Source: Gemmatimonadota bacterium
Lineage (GTDB): Bacteria > Gemmatimonadota > Gemmatimonadetes > Gemmatimonadales > GWC2-71-9
Length of the DNA stretch: 64,000 bases
NCBI GenBank assembly: GCA_039591655.1
Contig: JBDHDE010000005.1
Coordinates: 1 to 64,000 of the forward strand
Reading direction: 5' to 3'
Below the pieces are notes generated by a model. That model had not been told where the DNA came from and did no database searches. It saw only the letters and a program-made list of their open reading frames with translations. Shown piece by piece: positions 3,865 through 17,492 of the stretch; the first letter of the stretch is position 1, and every line of letters begins with the position of its first letter. The translations under genes were made by a program, and so were the position numbers.

Positions 3865-4065
3865 GCTGCTCCTCCGGTTCTCTCGCTCCGGGGGCCGCTG
3901 GAGCCTCTGTGCGTTCGACATAGTGATCTTCAGCCGCCGACTTGGTCCTTGATCATATCGACGCTCCGCGCCCCCGGACGCTCTGTAAGAATACGGCTGG
4001 TAGGCCAACACGGCCAGAAGGCGTCATCGCCCGTGCAGGACGACGCGCGGTGCTGGGATCCGACG

Positions 4066-4104
4066 GACCCAGACTGAGACCCACCGAAGATTGGCCGATC
4101 CGTG
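4066..4104. repeat. Short fragment (5' conserved block only) of the repeat family: CCCAGACTGAGACCCACCGAAGATTGGCCGATCCGT
   Basis: Near-identical to the 5' blocks at 2308, 5314, 12806 and 16384. Confidence 0.7.
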
Positions 4105-4109
4105 AGCGT

Positions 4110-5298: not shown

Positions 5299-5864
5299 GG
5301 GGACAGAAGCAGGCCCAGACTGAGACCCACCGAACATTAGCCGATCCGTAAGTGGCTTGCGTGACGGGGCTTATGAGGGGTGTGTCGGGTTATCTTACCA
5401 GCTCCTAAGGCTGGCGCGTCTACCAGTTCCGCCACGGCCGCGGGATGGTCAAAACTCAGGTCTAAGCCGTTGGGAGCATAGGGATTCCGCCCGGAGGACG
5501 GGGCTCCTCGGGGTTCTGGGGCGGGTCCAGGTCGACCTTCAGATGTGGTGTTTTCCCGCACGGTCGGCGGTTTGGTGGGGCATTCTCCTGTATCTCCGCG
5601 GGTCCAGATGCGGGTCCACCTCTACCGAATGTCCCACAACGACACTCGATGCCCCCGAACAGTCCTGGCCGCGCGGCTCTCTGAATTGCAGATTGGCAGG
5701 ACAAAGATCCTCAGGGCCACTCCCCGTCCGCCCAGCGTTTGGGCGGATTAGGCTGCGTGCACGGTATGCGTCCGCTTTCCAGCCTAATCCCAGGGTAGGG
5801 TCGTGTTGTGCTGCGAACCACGCGGCGTTGGGGTGTGGACGATGCAGTCTACTACTAGTTAGGC
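5299..5864 (+). repeat. Full-length copy 1 of the ~570-bp repeat family (5' block GGACAGAAGCAGGCCCAGACTGAGACCCACCGAA ... 3' module GGGCGGATTAGGCTG...CAGCCTAATC...GATGCAGTCTACTACTAGTTAGGC)
   Basis: Aligns block-wise with 16367-16933 (~75-80% identity, conserved blocks separated by variable stretches). The 3' module contains the hairpin GATTAGGCTG/CAGCCTAATC and ends in the attC-like core GTTAGGC (5858-5864). Confidence 0.8.
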
Positions 5865-5925
5865 AGCGGGCGACCGGCCGGCGAGGATCAAGAGTACGTC
5901 ACCCTATCCTTGGAGGACTCCGAAC

Positions 5926-6323: not shown

Positions 6324-6464
6324 CCTAGCACGCGCATGCAGCTGCGGAGGCGCGTGGGATCTAAAGGAAGTTGTGATTGTGCGCCAGGTGAGATCCAGAA
6401 CAGATGGCTTTCCCTGCAGCTGCCGGCCCATCGCGCCCGCAGCTCATGCGCGAAGTCGTTAGGC
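6324..6464 (+). other. attC-like recombination site (141 bp): GCCTAGCacGCGCATGCAGCTGCGG ... CCCGCAGCTCATGCGCgaagtcGTTAGGC
   Basis: The ends are inverted repeats of each other with asymmetric bulges. The 5' core GCCTAGC is near RYYYAAC and the 3' core GTTAGGC is exact GTTRRRY. Lies immediately after the ABM ORF and immediately before the next ORF (ATG 6480). Confidence 0.55.
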
Positions 6465-7184: not shown

Positions 7185-9464
7185 ATGCCCCGCGCACATT
7201 GGGTGGGCATGGCAGACTTTGTGGAACTCCTGCGGGCCGCGCTACGCGGTCGCTACTCGATCGGACGCAAGCTTGGCGAGGGCGGCATGGCTGTCGTCTT
7301 TCTCGCGAAGGACGAGCGGCATGACCGGAGCGTCGCACTCAAGGTGCTCCGGCCGGATCTGGCCTCCGAGGTCGGCGCGGAGCGATTCTTGAGGGAGATC
7401 AAGATCGCGGCCAAGCTGACCCACCCGCACATCCTCCCCCTGTATGACTCCGGCGAGGCCGACGGCTTCCTGTTCTACGTGATGCCCCTCATGGAGGGAC
7501 GGTCGTTACGGGAGCGCGTTGACAAGGAACGGCAGCTTCCACTGGATGAAGCAGTTCGCATCACGCAGGAGGTCGCGTCGGCGCTCGACTACGCGCATCG
7601 CCATGGTGTCATTCACCGGGACATCAAGCCAGCGAACATCTTGCTCCACGAAGGGGCGGCCATGGTGGCCGACTTCGGGATTGGCAAGCTGGTGAGCGCA
7701 GCCGAGGGCAAGATCACACAGACCGGGATGGCAATCGGCACGCCAGCGTACATGAGTCCGGAACAGGCATCTGCGGATTTCGAAGTGGATGGCCGCAGCG
7801 ATCTCTACAGCCTCGGATGCGTCCTGTACGAGATGCTGTCCGGTGAGCCGCCATACACTGGACCCACCGCGCAGGCGGTGATCGCCAAGCGGCTCGGCGC
7901 GCCGGTTCCGCACGTCAAAGTGGTTCGTGACGTCGCCGATCCGGTGGACGCGGTCGTCACGAGGGCGCTCGCGCGCACGCCGGTCGACCGATTTGCCTCA
8001 GCAGCCGAGTTTGCCGCGGCGCTGCGGGATGCACAGAGCGGAACGTTGCATACTCCGGAGGCTGTGCTGGCCGTCGGACAGGCCGGTAGCGATATCAAAT
8101 CCGTTGCGGTGCTGCCGTTCGCCAACTTGAGCGCGGATCCCGAGAACGAGTACTTCAGCGACGGCATGACTGAGGAGATCATCAACGTTCTCGGCAAGGT
8201 ACCGGGCATCCAGGTTGCGTCACGCACGTCGAGTTTCGCCTTCAAGGGTAAGGACGTCGACGTGCGACAGATCGGAGAGAAACTGGGTGTTGGGATCGTG
8301 CTCGAGGGAAGCGTACGCAAGGTGGGCCAGCGGATCCGCATTACCACGCAGCTCACCGATGTCACCAACGGCTACAACCTCTGGAACGAGACGTACGACC
8401 GGCAACTGGAGGACGTGTTCGCCATTCAGGACGAGATCTCCCGAGCGATCGCGGACGCCCTCAAGGTCAAGCTCGTCGGCGATATGGGGAGACGGATGGC
8501 CCCCGCGCCGGAGAACCTCGAAGCGTACAACCTCTACCTAAAAGGACGCTTCTTCTACAACAAGTTCACCGAGGTCGATCTCCGGCGAGGCGTCGAGCTG
8601 TTTGAGCACGCCTTGAAGGAGGCCCCGAAGTATGCTCGTGCCCACGCCGGTATCGCGGACTGTTGGGCCTATCTCGCGGACGATTGGGTGGCCCCAGACG
8701 AGGCGTACCCCAAGGCGAAAGCATCCGCGATGCGCGCGCTCGACCTCGAACCGTCCCTCGGAGACGCGTTCACCGCGCTGGGCAAGGTGCTGTGCTGGTA
8801 CGAGTGGGATTTCGCGGGTGCCGAACGGGAGCTGACGAGTGCGGTGAACCTGAACCCGAACTCGGCCGAAGCGCGCTTTGTCTTGGGCAGCGCGTTGCCG
8901 TGCGTCGGCAAGCTCGACAGGGGACTCGAGGAGCTGCGGCAGGCGCTCGTACTCGATCCGCTCGCCCCGCTGTTCAGTCGGTGGGTGGGCCGCTACCTGC
9001 TCTTCTCGGGCGACTACGACGGCACGATCGAGCAGAGCGAGAAGACGCTGGAGCTGGACCCCAACTACTTCCACTCGTTCCTTGATATCGGCTCCGCCTA
9101 CCTCGGCAAGGGCGCTCCCGAACACGCCCTCGAGTGGTACCGGAAGGGCCAGTCACTGCCGTCCAGCGTCCGCTCGTATGATGCACACCTGGTTCGTGCA
9201 CTTGCGGCCACGGGCCAGCAGGAAGAAGCACAAGCGATCCTCGAGCGGCTCGAAAAGGAGGCTCAGGAGCACTACCTCAGATCTGAAGTGCTCGCGATGG
9301 GCTATGCCGCCGTGGGGGACTTCGATGGGGCGTTCGCCGGCCTCGAGCAGGCAGTTCGGTCGCGCTCGGGAGGGCTCATCTTCATCCACCTGGATCCTGG
9401 CTACGAACCGCTGCGGACGGATGCGCGGTTCGCCAGGATCGTCGAGCAGGTGGGGGTCAGGTAG
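7185..9464 (+). CDS. Ser/Thr protein kinase with C-terminal TM, TolB-N-like region and TPR repeats (complete paralogue of the kinase at 1-2211)
   Basis: Gly-rich loop LGEGGMAVVF, VALK Lys, HRDIKPANILL catalytic loop, DFG, APE (GTPAYMSPEQ). Then LPFANLSADPENEYFSDGMTEEI motif and TPR-like repeats. Confidence 0.85.
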   Translation: MPRAHWVGMADFVELLRAALRGRYSIGRKLGEGGMAVVFLAKDERHDRSVALKVLRPDLASEVGAERFLREIKIAAKLTHPHILPLYDSGEADGFLFYVMPLMEGRSLRERVDKERQLPLDEAVRITQEVASALDYAHRHGVIHRDIKPANILLHEGAAMVADFGIGKLVSAAEGKITQTGMAIGTPAYMSPEQASADFEVDGRSDLYSLGCVLYEMLSGEPPYTGPTAQAVIAKRLGAPVPHVKVVRDVADPVDAVVTRALARTPVDRFASAAEFAAALRDAQSGTLHTPEAVLAVGQAGSDIKSVAVLPFANLSADPENEYFSDGMTEEIINVLGKVPGIQVASRTSSFAFKGKDVDVRQIGEKLGVGIVLEGSVRKVGQRIRITTQLTDVTNGYNLWNETYDRQLEDVFAIQDEISRAIADALKVKLVGDMGRRMAPAPENLEAYNLYLKGRFFYNKFTEVDLRRGVELFEHALKEAPKYARAHAGIADCWAYLADDWVAPDEAYPKAKASAMRALDLEPSLGDAFTALGKVLCWYEWDFAGAERELTSAVNLNPNSAEARFVLGSALPCVGKLDRGLEELRQALVLDPLAPLFSRWVGRYLLFSGDYDGTIEQSEKTLELDPNYFHSFLDIGSAYLGKGAPEHALEWYRKGQSLPSSVRSYDAHLVRALAATGQQEEAQAILERLEKEAQEHYLRSEVLAMGYAAVGDFDGAFAGLEQAVRSRSGGLIFIHLDPGYEPLRTDARFARIVEQVGVR

Positions 9465-9744: not shown

Positions 9745-9804
9745 GCCTAACCCACGCCCGCAGCTGATGCGCGAAGTTGTCAGGCAGAACACAGACCGTT
9801 AGGC
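9745..9804 (+). other. attC-like site (60 bp): GCCTAACccacgCCCGCAGCTGATGCGCGAAGTtgtcaggcagaacacagaccGTTAGGC
   Basis: Exact RYYYAAC (GCCTAAC) and GTTRRRY (GTTAGGC) cores, mutually complementary, at the classic 59-be length. Shares the CCCGCAGCTSATGCGCGAAGT motif with the site at 6324-6464. Confidence 0.6.
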
Positions 9805-9933
9805 GGCGGCGGTCGTCCACCTTGGTATCGCGTGTGAACCTATTTCGATTGCAGGAAGAGGCTTTTCAGGTTCATCAGGAACGTTGGTTCTAGCGCATCA
9901 GATTCGTTGATTTCGATTGTTAAGGAGCAGATT

Positions 9934-10305
9934 ATGGACCTCGGTGCATTCTCGATCAGCTTGGCAGTGAAGGACATCGGAGCATCGAAGGAGTTTTACG
10001 AGAAGCTCGGTTTCGAAGTCTTCGGCGGCGATGCCTCGCAGAACTGGCTGATCATGAAGAATGGCGATCACGCGATCGGGCTCTTTCAGGGAATGTTCGA
10101 GAAGAACACCCTGACATTCAATCCTGGCTGGGACAGTAACGCCCATGAGCTCGATACCTACACAGATGTCCGCGAGCTACAGCGTCATCTGAAGGAGCAG
10201 GGAGTAGAGCTGATCAGCGAGGCGGACGAGAGCACCTCCGGACCCGCGAGTTTTATCGCAGTGGATCCTGATGGAAACCCGATCCTCGTCGATCAGCATG
10301 TCTGA
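9934..10305 (+). CDS. VOC (glyoxalase/bleomycin-resistance/dioxygenase) family protein; putative cassette
   Basis: [29 protein letters not shown] is a VOC beta-alpha-beta-beta-beta module. Start at ATG 9934 with SD AAGGAG 6 nt upstream; ORF-track start at 9907 rejected. Confidence 0.6.
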
Positions 10306-10327
10306 GCCATTGCACGCGCCCCTGGGC

Positions 10328-10449
10328 GGATTAGGCTGCACGCACGTTATGGGCGACAGCTCGCAGCCTGTTGCCGAGGTATGTTTGGTGTTAGACGGAG
10401 TATTCGGCAGGGCGGCAGTACAGATGACTCAGTCTAATACTAGTTAGGC
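10328..10449 (+). repeat. Stand-alone copy of the repeat family's 3' module (GATTAGGCTGC...GCAGCCT hairpin ... GATGACTCAGTCTAATACTAGTTAGGC), attC-like
   Basis: Matches 5746-5864 and 16813-16933. Ends in GTTAGGC (10443-10449); an additional GTTAGAC at 10391-10397. Confidence 0.6.
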
Positions 10450-10507
10450 GGATGCCCGTGCCACTCCGGAGCAGCGCCGACTTCGCTCCCATGCAACCGG
10501 GGCACCT

Positions 10508-10933: not shown

Positions 10934-10989
10934 TTGACACCCCACTCACCATATTGTACTATATGACCATAACACTAGTATTATAGTAC
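10934..10989 (+). promoter_or_regulatory. Sigma70-like promoter (TTGACA-17-TACTAT) overlapped by palindromic operator GTACTATA-N18-TATAGTAC upstream of the GntR gene
   Basis: -35 TTGACA at 10934-10939, 17-bp spacer, -10 TACTAT at 10957-10962. Inverted repeat GTACTATA (10956-10963) / TATAGTAC (10982-10989), the GT..AC-type palindrome typical of GntR operators. Confidence 0.5.
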
Positions 10990-11006
10990 GCAAGGGATAC
11001 GGAACC

Positions 11007-11381
11007 TTGGAATTCTCCATCGACCCGAAGAGCGGCGTCCCCTTTTACCGGCAGATCATCGAGCGGGTCAAGTTCGGCATCGCCCGGGGTCTTCTCACGC
11101 CGGGGGACCAACTCCCCACGGTCCGGCAGCTCGCCACGGACTGTTCGGTCAATCCCAACACCGTCATCCGCGCCTACCGACAAATGGAGATCGAGGGCGT
11201 GCTGGACACGCAGCAGGGTTCCGGGACTTTCGTCAGCGACCGCCGGCCGGAGATCGACGATCTCGAGCGCCGCCGGATGCTCGACCAGATCCTCACCGAA
11301 ATGCTGGCCCGCGCCTCTGGGTATGGGTTCACGGTCGACGAGGTGTTCGAGGGGCTGCACCAGCGAAGGGAGGAGTCATGA
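11007..11381 (+). CDS. GntR-family transcriptional regulator (small, YhcF/YtrA-like), TTG start
   Basis: N-terminal wHTH: GDQLPTVRQLATDCSVNPNTVIRAYRQMEIEGVLDTQQGSGTFV (GntR signature). Stop overlaps the next gene's start (ATGA). Confidence 0.7.
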   Translation: MEFSIDPKSGVPFYRQIIERVKFGIARGLLTPGDQLPTVRQLATDCSVNPNTVIRAYRQMEIEGVLDTQQGSGTFVSDRRPEIDDLERRRMLDQILTEMLARASGYGFTVDEVFEGLHQRREES

Positions 11382-12487
11382 TCCACCGAACCTCCAAACA
11401 CCACCGTCCCGGGAAGTCGCAATTTGGGATCTCCCTTGAGAGATTCGCCACTTCGAGCCGGGCCGACTTTCGATTCGCACCCCTCAACGCCCTGTTGCTG
11501 GTGGCAATGTTCGTGATCGGGCTGACGGTGCACCTGAACGTACACGAGTTCACGATAAAGGCTGTCTACCTCTCCCTTGGATCGGCGCTGGGCCTCACTA
11601 TCCTCATTCGTTGGACCCAGGTGTGGGAAGCCGTCGTCATCCTCGGCACCGCCGTCTGCCTGACGATCTTCCTCGAGCTGCGTCCGAACAGCGAGATCCT
11701 GCTGGCGACCGCCATCGTGGCGCTGCTCGTGTCTCCCGCTGTCCAGATCGCCTACCAGTGGGAGCGGGCCGTGCTGCTCCGCTTCGGCAAGTTTTGTGGA
11801 TTGCGCAAGTCGGGTCTGTTTCCCGTCGTGCCGGTGATCGACAAGGTGGCCCAGTTCGTGGACCAGCGAATCCGGGTAACCGACTTCAGCGCCGAGACGA
11901 CCCTCACCGCCGATACGGTCCCGGTCAACGTGGACGCCATCGCGTTCTGGATGGTGTGGGACGCGGAGAAGGCGGTCCTGGAGGTGGAGCAGTTCGACGA
12001 CGCGGTGATCATGTCGGCACAGACGGCCCTGCGGAACGCCATCGGGAAGAATGACCTGGCAGTGCTGCTTTCCGAGCGTGACCGGTTGGGCAGCGAGATT
12101 CAGAAGCTGCTCGACTCGAAGACCAACGCCTGGGGCATCACCACCGAGGCAGTGGAGATCCGCGACATCATCATTCCCGAGGCTCTCGAAGATGCCATGT
12201 CGCGCCAGGCCCAGGCGGAGCGGGAGCGCCAGAGCCGCATCATCCTCGGCACTGCCGAGACCGAGATTGCGGAGAAGTTCGCCAAAGCGTCGGAGCATTA
12301 CCAGGACAACAGCGTCGCCCTGCATCTGCGGGCGATGAACATGGTCTACGAGGGATTGCGGCAGAAAGGCTCGATGGTCATCGTGCCCTCCACCGCAGTG
12401 GAGAGCATGGGCCTGGGAGCCCTCGGCGGGTTGACCGCCCTTGGCCGTGACGTGACTCCGCAAGACGCAGACCACGCCGAACCATGA
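11378..12487 (+). CDS. SPFH/band-7 (stomatin/prohibitin/HflKC-like) domain membrane protein
   Basis: N-terminal TM helices, then an SPFH core (PVIDKVAQFVDQRIRVTDF...TADTVPVNVDAIAFWMV...EIRDIIIPEALEDAMSRQAQAERERQSRI). SD GGGAGGAG; translationally coupled to the GntR gene. Confidence 0.7.
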   Translation: MIHRTSKHHRPGKSQFGISLERFATSSRADFRFAPLNALLLVAMFVIGLTVHLNVHEFTIKAVYLSLGSALGLTILIRWTQVWEAVVILGTAVCLTIFLELRPNSEILLATAIVALLVSPAVQIAYQWERAVLLRFGKFCGLRKSGLFPVVPVIDKVAQFVDQRIRVTDFSAETTLTADTVPVNVDAIAFWMVWDAEKAVLEVEQFDDAVIMSAQTALRNAIGKNDLAVLLSERDRLGSEIQKLLDSKTNAWGITTEAVEIRDIIIPEALEDAMSRQAQAERERQSRIILGTAETEIAEKFAKASEHYQDNSVALHLRAMNMVYEGLRQKGSMVIVPSTAVESMGLGALGGLTALGRDVTPQDADHAEP

Positions 12488-12542
12488 GCACGCAGACAGT
12501 TAGGTGCCCGGTTAGGCACGGCAACACGAAAGGGGGATCAAC

Positions 12543-12746
12543 ATGAAGCCGGCTGCAACGGTAGCCATCGTATTCCTTCTCCTGGTCGCGCTCGTGCATT
12601 TGCTCCGCCTGCTCTTCGGCGTTGCGATCACCGTGAGTGATACGACCATTCCAATGTGGGCGAGTGTCCTGGCCGTCATGGGCCCTGGAGCTCTGGCAGT
12701 GTGGTTGTGGCGCGAACAGTCCGCACCCCGCACGCCGACCGCCTAA
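12543..12746 (+). CDS. Small (67 aa) two-TM membrane protein
   Basis: MKPAATVAIVFLLLVALVHLLRLLFGVAITV... is hydrophobic. Its TAA stop lies inside the GCCTAAC core of the following attC-like site. Confidence 0.4.
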   Translation: MKPAATVAIVFLLLVALVHLLRLLFGVAITVSDTTIPMWASVLAVMGPGALAVWLWREQSAPRTPTA

Positions 12747-12795
12747 CGCGCGGCGGGCACGCGGGCGTTTCAGACGGAATGTCATGACGTTGGGC
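12741..12795 (+). other. attC-like site (55 bp): GCCTAAC ... GTTGGGC
   Basis: Exact RYYYAAC and GTTRRRY cores. The stop codon of the upstream ORF is embedded in the 5' core, as is common in integron cassettes. Confidence 0.45.
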
Positions 12796-12838
12796 AGAAA
12801 GCGGGCCCAGACTGAGACCCACCGAAGATTGGCCGATC
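12792..12838. repeat. Fragment (5' conserved block) of the repeat family, starting inside/right after the attC-like 3' core: GGGCAGAAAGCGGGCCCAGACTGAGACCCACCGAAGATTGGCCGATC
   Basis: Near-identical to the 5' blocks at 5299, 16367, 4066 and 2308. Confidence 0.7.
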
Positions 12839-12994
12839 ACCCGGGCTCTCTTTCTGAAGGGAGCTGCGGTACTGAAGCTCAAGGTGGCACAGCGCCCGGC
12901 CCCATGCCGGGCGCTGTTGTTTCCGGTCCAAGAATCCCGACGAGTGCTCGCCTTCACACACCAGTCGGCGCGGGCAAACCTCGCCTCTCGCGCT

Positions 12995-16366: not shown

Positions 16367-16933
16367 GGGGACAGAAGCGGGCCCAGACTGAGACCCACCG
16401 AAGATTCCCCAATTCGTAAGTCGCCTTCCTGAAGGGGTTTGCGAGGGCTTGGGCGGCTCTGCAGACCAGCTCCTAAGGCTGGCGCGTCTACCAGTTTCGC
16501 CATGGCCGCGGGATGGTCAAAAGTAATGTCTAAGTCGTTGTGGCCATAGTGGTTCTGCCCAAAGGACGGGGCTTCTGGGGGTCCTGGGGCGGGTCGTCGA
16601 TCCGCAGATGTGCTGTCTTCCCGTACGGTCGGCGGTTTTGCAGGGCATTCTCCCGTATCTCCGCGGGTCCAGATGGCGGGTCCACTGCGTCGAAGGTCCC
16701 AGATCAGGCACACGGTGCCCCCGAACAGTCCTGGCCACGCGGGTTTCCGAATCGCAGATTGGCAGGACGGAGATCTCCACGATCGCTCCCTGTCCACGTA
16801 GCGCATGGGCGGATTAGGCTGCAAGCGGAATGGGCTGGGGTGCTCGCAGCCTTATCCCGGCGGAGGTTCACGTTAGGCTGCGCGCGGTGCGCCAGTGGGG
16901 GAGGGAAAGATGCAGTCTACTACGAGTTGGGCG
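16367..16933 (+). repeat. Full-length copy 2 of the ~570-bp repeat family, ending in attC-like cores (GTTAGGC at 16873-16879, GTTGGGC at 16927-16933)
   Basis: Block-wise alignment to 5299-5864: GGGACAGAAGCGGGCCCAGACTGAGACCCACCGAAGATT, CCAGCTCCTAAGGCTGGCGCGTCTACCAGTT, GCATTCTCCYGTATCTCCGCGGGTCCAGATG, CCCCCGAACAGTCCTGGCC, GCAGATTGGCAGGAC, GGGCGGATTAGGCTGC, GATGCAGTCTACTAC. Confidence 0.8.
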
Positions 16934-16944
16934 GCGGGGGTCAG

Positions 16945-17463
16945 TTGAGCGGTACCGCACATCTCAAGGAGCCGATCGCCTGCACTGAGGGGGAGCGCCG
17001 GGAGTTCGCGCGTCTTGTTCGCCAAGGTTTTGAGACCGCGGCTGAGGACTTGGATGGCCGCATTCGTGATGCGGAATGGCTTGCGTTCCATTACGCGGAA
17101 GGCAACACGCTCGCGGCGGTCGCCGCCCTAAAGGCGCCCAACGTACGGTATCGGGACAACGTCTTCAAGAAGGCGGACGCACCCGTCAGCCCTGCTGCTT
17201 ACAAGCTCGAACTTGGCTGGGTCTTCGTCATTCCTGCCCACCGAGGGAACCGGATTGCCGAGAGTCTTTGCCAGCTGCTTTTGGCGCGCGTGCCTACGTC
17301 CTGTGTTTTTGCGACGACCCGCCCGAACAACATCTCCATGATTAGCATCCTTCTCGCCCTCGGCTTTGCGCGAGTCGGCAAGCCGTATCCCCACCGCAAC
17401 GAAGAGCTTGTACTATTCTTGCGGTCGTGGCCGCTCTTCGTGGCGCCAGGCCCCGCCGCCTAA
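16945..17463 (+). CDS. GNAT-family N-acetyltransferase (non-ATG start; 5' end uncertain); putative cassette
   Basis: C-terminal GNAT core LGWVFVIPAHRGNRIAESLCQLLLARVPTSCVFATTRPNNISMISILLALGF (motif A region). There is no in-frame ATG, so the start is probably the TTG near 16945. The ORF-track start at 16540 runs through the repeat and is rejected. TAA stop is embedded in GCCTAAC. Confidence 0.45.
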   Translation: MSGTAHLKEPIACTEGERREFARLVRQGFETAAEDLDGRIRDAEWLAFHYAEGNTLAAVAALKAPNVRYRDNVFKKADAPVSPAAYKLELGWVFVIPAHRGNRIAESLCQLLLARVPTSCVFATTRPNNISMISILLALGFARVGKPYPHRNEELVLFLRSWPLFVAPGPAA

Positions 17464-17492
17464 CCCGCAGCTGATGCGCAGAGCCATTAGGC
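17458..17492 (+). other. Short attC-like palindrome GCCGCCTAACccgcagctgatgcgcagagccATTAGGCGGC (degenerate)
   Basis: GCCTAAC core overlapping the GNAT stop; arms GCCGCCTAA/TTAGGCGGC. Shares the CCGCAGCTGATGCGC motif with other sites. The 3' core is ATTAGGC (one mismatch) and the site is shorter than a typical attC. Confidence 0.35.

Follow-up and report, generated by a model that had tools for sequence, protein, structure and literature searches.

A conserved operon pairing a YtrA-type GntR regulator with a slipin, and its predicted palindromic operator, in a Gemmatimonadota genome

The stretch of DNA analysed here, hereafter the window, comprises 64,000 nucleotides (nt) of a Gemmatimonadota bacterium (GenBank assembly GCA_039591655.1, contig JBDHDE010000005.1, positions 1 to 64,000 of the forward strand), and this work concerns a small operon near position 11,000 in which a gene encoding a GntR-family regulator precedes a gene encoding a membrane protein of the stomatin type (SPFH, or Band 7). 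An earlier note, made from the sequence alone, had described the locus as a self-regulated three-gene module carried as mobile cargo, with its own promoter and palindromic operator and with an attC-like site at its end. The TTG-start regulator gene with its winged helix-turn-helix (wHTH) product, the ATGA overlap with the SPFH gene and a third open reading frame (ORF) of 67 amino acids (aa) all lie where that note had placed them. The promoter, the operator and the two principal genes are as follows.

10934-10939, plus strand: -35 hexamer TTGACA, from direct reading and a promoter scan
10957-10962, plus strand: -10 hexamer TACTAT, after a 17-nt spacer from the -35 and inside the left outer operator half-site
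10955-10990, no strand assigned: predicted palindromic operator of 36 bp, from the consensus of orthologous loci and a position weight matrix (PWM)
11007-11381, plus strand: gene of the YtrA-subfamily GntR regulator, 124 aa, TTG start (Pfam GntR, E 9.5e-17)
11378-12487, plus strand: gene of the stomatin-type SPFH (slipin) membrane protein, 369 aa (Band_7/SPFH, E 3e-33)

The regulator matches Pfam PF00392 over residues 14-76 (E 9.5e-17), and its TTG start is supported by the orthologs, in which the codon aligned with it is variously TTG, GTG or ATG. The nearest NCBIfam models, those of Rv1152 and PmtR, both scored below cut-off, and since these equivalog cut-offs failed the protein is taken to form a distinct ortholog group. 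Its best sequence matches in the PDB (4HAM, 3BY6, 4R1H, 3NEU and 6SBS; E 7e-17 to 2e-11) are proteins of about 120-135 aa. An AlphaFold2 model (predicted local distance difference test, pLDDT, of 85) displays a wHTH composed of helices at residues 13-26, 39-46 and 50-62 and strands at 66-69 and 72-75, followed by two C-terminal helices (85-105 and 110-123). When this model was compared with the PDB using Foldseek, the YtrA protein of Sulfolobus (6SBS) ranked first and the top nine rows were chains of five YtrA-type entries (6SBS, 4HAM, 4R1H, 3BY6 and 3NEU), with 2EK5 and 2DU9 lower in the list. Members of the YtrA subfamily have a total length of about 120-130 aa and a reduced C-terminal domain of about 50 aa that consists of two helices (PMC4494728, PMC6746942), a structural definition to which the protein, as modelled, conforms. 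The earlier assignment as a YtrA-like regulator is therefore borne out by its size, by the AlphaFold2 model and by the Foldseek matches.

The ATGA at 11378-11381 joins the TGA stop codon of the regulator gene to the ATG start codon of the slipin gene in a 4-nt overlap, and a Shine-Dalgarno sequence of the latter, AAGGGAGGAG, is found at 11366-11375. The encoded protein matches Pfam PF01145 (Band_7, E 3e-33) and, in the PDB, the PH1511 stomatin (5e-37), human stomatin (4e-34, residues 117-338), QmcA (3e-27) and HflK (3e-9), and it scores below the cut-offs of the NCBIfam models of both HflK and HflC. Judged by these matches it is closest to the stomatins, and not to HflK/C; database sources label it 'slipin family protein', and its alignment to the stomatin chains of 16-chain PDB entries covers residues 25-247 of 256 in 9WMJ. 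Most columns of the slipin alignment display more than 90% conservation. Four N-terminal hydrophobic segments (approximately 35-52, 60-76, 80-98 and 105-121) are kept across the orthologs, with a highly conserved motif, SLERFAxxxRADFRFAPLNA, ahead of the first. The usual membrane anchor of a stomatin is a single hydrophobic segment. Going by the positive-inside rule only, the N- and C-termini would lie in the cytoplasm, and the SPFH domain with them.

Prokaryotic stomatins are classically found in operons with NfeD (STOPP), such as PH1510/PH1511 of P. horikoshii and ybbJ-qmcA of E. coli. The present locus resembles these systems in being a small operon centred on a stomatin, and in its SPFH protein being closest to PH1511 and also matching QmcA. 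It differs from them in that the upstream partner is a predicted DNA-binding repressor instead of an NfeD membrane protease/OB-fold protein, and in that its slipin has, at the N-terminus, three additional hydrophobic segments and the conserved motif. The first 130 aa of the slipin matched no Pfam family above threshold and displayed no sign of a fused NfeD.

In a scan of one genome per species, at least 574 genomes were found to carry a relative of the slipin, and 80 loci were kept. The slipin has thousands of close relatives, the top 120 being 76-100% identical to it. The kept loci bear the labels Gemmatimonadota, Acidobacteriota, Latescibacterota, Planctomycetota, Myxococcota, Krumholzibacteriia, Verrucomicrobia, Eubacteriales and Petrotogaceae, among others; these are labels given by the submitters of metagenome-assembled genomes (MAGs) and may be erroneous, and the spread across phyla is considered real because the GC content of the loci spans 35% to 69%. 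In 77 of 84 loci the slipin gene is directly preceded by an ortholog of the regulator (54-85% identity). Of the remaining seven, four end at the slipin gene, where the contig ends, and in the other three the ortholog lies 0.5-1 kb upstream of the slipin; in the two of these three that were examined (L070 and L072, both from Phycisphaerae), the pair is separated by an additional gene for a membrane protein, and that of L072 has a DUF3592 domain. Among the 80 related loci, each one with upstream sequence thus has a regulator ortholog within the operon. The 4-nt stop/start overlap is found in 46 of 66 loci, and the junction falls between -12 and +15 nt in 57 of them. The genes flanking the pair are unrelated between the genomes that carry it, and no transporter gene is linked to it in any sampled locus. 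The adjacency of the two genes, for which a survey had been proposed, is thus clearly conserved. The pairing had also been regarded as not commonly described, and this agrees with a full-text literature search, in which GntR was paired with SPFH, with stomatin or with Band 7 and YtrA was paired with stomatin, and which returned incidental co-mentions only and no description of the pairing.

The two proteins are each 65-92% identical between differently labelled phyla whose loci lie more than 30 GC points apart (35% in L020 and 69% in L024). Sequence identity of this order would imply horizontal transfer, an unusually strong constraint, or both, and its very high level across distant genomes suggests a horizontal spread of the two-gene unit. 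In a plasmid collection, the best match of both proteins was a single record of Parabacteroides distasonis (NZ_OY725779.1, locus L085, 91857-93120), in which a 131-aa GntR protein and a 292-aa, shorter version of the slipin are encoded by adjacent genes with an 11-nt overlap. This record is labelled 'plasmid 34' but looks chromosomal, as it carries serB and xth, the latter encoding exodeoxyribonuclease III. Apart from this pair, the plasmid records held distant slipins only; no close relative of the module was found on known phages, and PADLOC, searched for anti-phage defence, gave no matches for it. The codon-position GC of both genes in the window matches that of the host.

Upstream of the regulator gene, the near-consensus promoter announced in the earlier note (TTGACA and TACTAT, 17 nt apart) is present, and so is the inverted repeat that overlaps it, with GTACTATA at 10956-10963 and TATAGTAC at 10982-10989, 18 nt between them and the left arm over the -10. 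Taken alone, the promoter scan proves nothing, as one site was found between 9500 and 14500 versus 0.7 expected in shuffled sequences, and the 8-bp inverted repeat alone is weakly significant; it is the comparison across genomes that decides. Among 74 distinct orthologous upstream regions, 61 contain TTGACN placed 16-18 nt before a TAnnnT -10, with an exact TTGACA in 48 of these 61 and a 17-nt spacer in 51, and the aligned -10 reads TAYTAN. The consensus block that follows the -35 in 63 distinct loci is ATTGTACTAtt..ACTAgaACA.TAGt..acTAg.aCa, which yields a palindrome of 36 bp, TGTACTA-N4-ACTA-N6-TAGT-N4-TAGTACA. Its mirrored positions are kept in 70-94% of the loci, the arm downstream of the start site included, and either half may alternatively be viewed as a pair of direct repeats spaced 8 bp apart (ACTA..ACTA; TAGT..TAGT). 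In the window, the outer half-sites are TGTACTA (10955-10961) and TAGTACg (10984-10990) and the inner ones ACCA (10966-10969; ACTA in the consensus) and TAGT (10976-10979). The centre of symmetry, 10972/10973 (10972.5), is also that of the inverted repeat, and since the two centres coincide, the repeat first noticed is the outer half-site pair of the longer palindrome. Promoter and palindrome are kept across loci of 35-69% GC, and it is this cross-species conservation that substantiates the proposal that the operon has a promoter and an operator of its own.

A PWM was built from 62 operator sites, all of them from other species, with the window's own species left out. The site in the window (10954) scored 40.2 bits on the plus strand and 26.4 bits on the minus strand, the latter value being high because the motif is a dyad. 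Against a background of -67 +/- 14, the next-best unrelated site in the 64 kb scored -9.2, and the operator is thus the sole site of its kind in the window. From the usual spacing between a -10 and a start, transcription is predicted to begin at about 10969-10971, at the centre of the dyad, and the palindrome would then extend from about -15 to +20 and take in both the -10 and the predicted start. GT (10956-10957) and AC (10988-10989) lie in the operator at a distance of about 16 bp on either side of its centre. In P. distasonis a related palindrome, TTGTATATTTGT..ACAAATAGTACAA, is located directly before the start codon of the GntR gene.

Regulators of the YtrA type are typically encoded by the first gene of the operon that they repress, and bind unusually long palindromes in which GT and AC lie far from the centre (PMC4494728, PMC6746942). 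The operator traits are found here, in the form of a long palindrome with distal GT and AC at the promoter of the regulator's own operon, to which the protein is predicted to bind; the ABC transporter that is the typical partner in the subfamily is not, and a slipin takes its place in all sampled loci. Because a YtrA-type regulator is encoded by the first gene, a long dyad with distal GT and AC lies over the promoter and start, and dyad and gene are inherited together amid changing surroundings, we consider it likely that the locus is a conserved, self-contained operon, autorepressed by its YtrA-type GntR regulator and with the slipin as cargo. The joint conservation of palindrome and GntR gene from phylum to phylum likewise makes autoregulation, as the earlier note had proposed, the best reading. 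In the mechanism that we propose, a near-consensus promoter of the sigma-70 type would drive the operon, in which the regulator gene comes first and would be translationally coupled to the slipin gene. Dimers of the regulator would most likely bind the 36-bp palindrome over the -10 and the start and block RNA polymerase, resulting in negative autoregulation, and release of the repressor would derepress the operon. The slipin would then assemble into an oligomeric scaffold in the inner membrane, with the SPFH domain facing the cytoplasm.

Several points weigh against this reading. Co-variation between the two arms within a locus was absent beyond that expected from the shared consensus (9.67 versus 9.53 mirrored matches, not significant), and symmetric recognition therefore draws its support from conservation only. 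The conservation of the left arm is itself confounded with its role as -10, and the promoter is predicted from a match to a consensus of the sigma-70 type. A search of the module and of the sampled downstream genes revealed no NfeD, which classically accompanies stomatins in prokaryotes. Binding of the regulator to the palindrome and the ensuing repression are both predicted from sequence evidence. Finally, no physiological ligand has been established for YtrA proteins (PMC6746942), which makes the induction step speculative.

Some of these points would equally suit an alternative in which the palindrome is the site of another regulator, or a combination of promoter elements with an RNA element of the 5' untranslated region (UTR): the left arm falls on the -10, the right arm would become part of the 5' UTR of the transcript, arm-to-arm co-variation was not detected and the link to the regulator is a predicted one. 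Nevertheless, we regard this alternative as quite improbable, given that the GntR-slipin pair is the only conserved neighbor of the palindrome amid unrelated flanks, and that length and distal GT/AC agree with the operators described for the YtrA subfamily. Moreover, the dyad is centred at the predicted start, which leaves half of it untranscribed and argues for recognition as DNA, and the strand fold of the operator region is insignificant (z = -0.88). The right arm, downstream of the predicted start, would have no role in the promoter, yet it is kept and mirrors the left arm.

The closest known counterpart of an operon autorepressed in this manner is YtrASa of Sulfolobus acidocaldarius (PDB 6SBS), the best structural match of the modelled regulator. 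In Sulfolobus, the operon comprises the regulator gene and a membrane-protein gene and is repressed by the regulator itself, which acts at a 32-bp inverted repeat over the start site (PMC6746942). In both cases the regulator gene is the first of two, the second encodes a membrane protein and a long inverted repeat, of 32 bp there and 36 bp here, covers the start of transcription, by prediction in the window. The repeat of YtrASa consists of a core palindrome with direct repeats of each half-site on its flanks, to which the ACTA-N4-ACTA and TAGT-N4-TAGT arrangement would correspond. In contrast, YtrASa is an archaeal protein, only about 33% identical, and the promoter at which it acts is likewise archaeal; no function is predicted for its membrane-protein partner, nor is this partner described as an SPFH protein (PMC6746942), and the binding of YtrASa was shown by experiment, whereas that of the present regulator is read from sequence. 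A subgroup of YtrA regulators associated with membrane proteins instead of ABC transporters is known from actinomycetes and Sulfolobus (PMC6746942). Among bacterial members, YtrA of the B. subtilis ytrGABCDEF operon, PmtR of S. aureus pmtABCD and Rv1152 of M. tuberculosis share the size and the domain plan of the regulator, and the bacterial YtrA-subfamily repressors likewise are encoded by the first gene of the repressed operon and have long palindromic operators; the difference lies in the cargo, which is a slipin here and not an ABC transporter.

The cue that releases the repressor would probably be related to the envelope or the membrane, to judge by B. subtilis YtrA, PmtR and Rv1152. The earlier note had called the locus a stress module, a label that may apply on similar grounds. 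Alternatively, the operon might be a homeostat without a signal, in which negative feedback holds the amount of slipin constant and expression is not stress-inducible. The C-terminal domain of YtrA proteins, which merely consists of two helices, and the lack of an established ligand mentioned above are both in agreement with such a device, and a near-consensus promoter, an operator over the start and translational coupling are the layout expected of a dosage homeostat. On the other hand, the relatives described so far respond to cues connected with the envelope: PmtR regulates the export of phenol-soluble modulin (PSM) peptides, according to its NCBIfam name, B. subtilis YtrA is reported to respond to cell-wall antibiotics (summarised in PMC6746942) and Rv1152 has been linked to the response to vancomycin (PMC4923875). 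We hold the homeostat to be possible, though doubtful; the sequence is consistent with it as well as with a cue from the envelope or membrane, and does not tell the two apart.

A further, unlikely variant would have the repressor, which is devoid of a real ligand-binding domain, controlled by the slipin with which it is co-translated, the SPFH protein being at once sensor and output of the circuit. In that case, the SPFH domain or the SLERFAxxxRADFRFAPLNA motif might capture or release the regulator according to scaffold assembly or to the state of the membrane. If true, control by the slipin would explain both the near-invariant 4-nt coupling and the unusually high conservation of the two proteins between differently labelled phyla.

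Downstream of the autorepressed pair, the features that the earlier note had joined to it, or that follow it, are the following.

12543-12746, plus strand: ORF of a 67-aa protein with two hydrophobic segments, a lineage-specific accessory gene
12741-12795, no strand assigned: 'attC-like' stretch GCCTAAC...GTTGGGC, with the outer cores only, judged not to be an attC site and to lie outside the module
12796-12844, no strand assigned: copy of a 45-nt interspersed repeat with the 'C' core GCGGGCCCAGACTGAGACCCACCGAAGATTGGCCGATC, in the probable 3' UTR
12889-12927, plus strand: terminator-like hairpin with an 11-12-bp G+C stem, CAGCGCCCGGC/GCCGGGCGCTG, followed by TTGTTT, from direct reading and an RNA fold

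Of the three-gene module first proposed, the two-gene core is conserved and the 67-aa gene is confined to a few relatives. Homologs of the latter directly follow the slipin gene in L064 (75%), L018 (56%), and L077 and L081 (about 40%), with weaker tblastn matches in L039 (45%) and in L030/L031 (42%, about 1 kb further downstream), and the protein matched no Pfam family above threshold. Other lineages carry, after the slipin gene, a gene for an unassigned protein of about 520 aa, for a DUF6868 protein or for a PEMT-like protein, or none, all of them unrelated to the 67-aa gene. A DUF3592 protein was also among the variable genes examined for functional hints, and none of these genes explains the function. 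Since the 67-aa gene is present in few relatives and the downstream genes vary, the conserved core is taken to be of two genes. As a separate observation, in many loci of Gemmatimonadota type (L006, L015, L016, L022, L032, L040, L044 and L062) the place of the 67-aa gene, directly after the slipin gene, is taken by a gene for a conserved protein of about 520-610 aa; this protein has a signal- or lipoprotein-like N-terminus and belongs to no Pfam family.

The transcription unit probably ends at the strong hairpin of 12889-12927, past position 12795. The RNA fold of this segment contains a 12-bp stem, and a strict scan did not list the hairpin, which is therefore borderline. Apart from it, the RNA folds at the end of the operon and in the local repeats were unremarkable.

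The attC-like site was the remaining component of the earlier proposal, and its heptamers are indeed present. The TAA stop codon (12744-12746) of the 67-aa gene falls within GCCTAAC (12741-12747), and GTTGGGC occupies 12789-12795; the two heptamers fit RYYYAAC/GTTRRRY, are complementary at 6 of 7 positions and span 55 nt end to end, so that, as in an integron attC, inverted 7-bp outer cores are placed at a stop codon. In contrast with a genuine attC, the inner L''/L' pairing and a stable hairpin are absent: pairing is limited to the outer 8 bp, direct reading shows no complementarity between the candidate L boxes, GCGGGCA and GGAATGT, and the fold of the bottom strand has an energy of -12.1 kcal/mol (z = -0.65), a value reached or surpassed by 47 of 200 shuffled sequences. 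In addition, no Phage_integrase match was found among the neighbors or the integrase-sized ORFs of the window, and the site is absent after the module in all 80 other-species loci.

The corresponding hypothesis, that the module is an integron cassette, or a member of an attC array that lacks its integrase, and hence mobile cargo acquired through site-specific recombination, with its downstream attC at 12741-12795, is not devoid of support. Besides the outer cores, a second R''/R' core pair is found at 9745-9804, with perfect pairing over 10 bp, just after another small gene; the window holds three core pairs versus 0.5 expected (P = 0.015); all nine of its GTTAGGC/GCCTAAC heptamers cluster at 5.8-17.5 kb; and the genes around this cluster are small and of accessory type (ABM, methyltransferase, two glyoxalases and GNAT). 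However, inner pairing is missing at 9745-9804 as well, and the single-strand DNA folds are weak, from -12 to -16 kcal/mol (z from -0.65 to -1.45), and no better than those of shuffles. The heptamers at the module have other origins: GCCTAAC is the last codon and the stop of the 67-aa gene and reads GCCTGAC in the L064 ortholog, where the downstream DNA is unrelated, and GTTGGGC aligns with the 5' edge of the 45-nt local repeat, where the other copies have GGGGGAC or AGGGGAC. Likewise, the host-like codon-position GC of the two genes, the lack of close relatives on known phages and the apparently chromosomal nature of the only related pair on a plasmid record, that of P. distasonis, all speak against such cargo, as does the absence of the local repeat families from the 80 other-species loci (about 600 kb). 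An attC terminator and integron cargo were consequently rejected, and we view this origin of the module as highly improbable.

Several further observations were made on the repeats in whose midst the operon sits, within a repeat-rich stretch of 4-17.5 kb that is flanked by two paralogous genes for Ser/Thr protein kinases with long TPR regions (19-2211 and 7185-9464). The 45-nt 'C' repeat has four copies in the window (4064-4106, 5310-5352, 12802-12844 and 16378-16420), with an invariant 21-mer, CCCAGACTGAGACCCACCGAA, and a different hairpin after each copy. It was found only in same-species MAG loci, and a scan of metagenome contigs for the exact 21-mer returned nothing. A direct duplication of about 570 nt (5300-5870 and 16368-16938, approximately 80-86% identical) starts with the 45-nt 'C' core and ends with a 'B' repeat; as it contains 1-nt indels and has no gene called in the annotation of a same-species MAG, it looks non-coding. 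Its most conserved stretch (about 5385-5440) corresponds, on the minus strand, to a near-perfect 5' half of tRNA-Leu(UAG), with the 5' strand of the acceptor, the D arm and the anticodon arm and no T arm; the Rfam tRNA model scores it at 19.3 bits (E 0.32), and ARAGORN calls nothing there. In the 64 kb, Rfam gave no matches at the gathering threshold, the 'C' repeat included, relaxed Rfam searches gave chance-level matches only together with one weak tRNA-like match, and ARAGORN called no tRNA genes.

Two other repeat families, A (6434-6464, 9745-9804 and 17458-17492) and B (5740-5870, 10323-10455 and 16806-16938), are intergenic and end in GTTAGGC or TTAGGC, and same-species MAG contigs break at them. 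They could be a lineage-specific family similar to repetitive extragenic palindromic (REP) elements, or an atypical cassette array. In the same stretch, a gene of the glyoxalase/bleomycin-resistance family (9907-10305) has a GC content of about 50-55% in a window of 66% GC, which suggests a recent acquisition.

In the literature searched, the large ortholog group to which the regulator belongs, predicted from sequence comparison to consist of YtrA-type autorepressors with a slipin as cargo, appears not to have been described previously. The mechanism proposed for it is an ordinary one and no new kind, and it is the breadth and degree of its conservation that are notable. Bacterial SPFH proteins are widespread and little is known of their function and control, and the locus presents a compact unit of regulator, operator and slipin, found in hundreds of species, most of them uncultured, and also in a cultured gut bacterium, P. 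distasonis. It extends the few known pairings of YtrA regulators with membrane proteins, in place of ABC transporters, to a cargo of the SPFH type, and the combination of a predicted operator, a predicted repressor and a tractable host offers an experimental handle on the conditions that switch on a bacterial stomatin.

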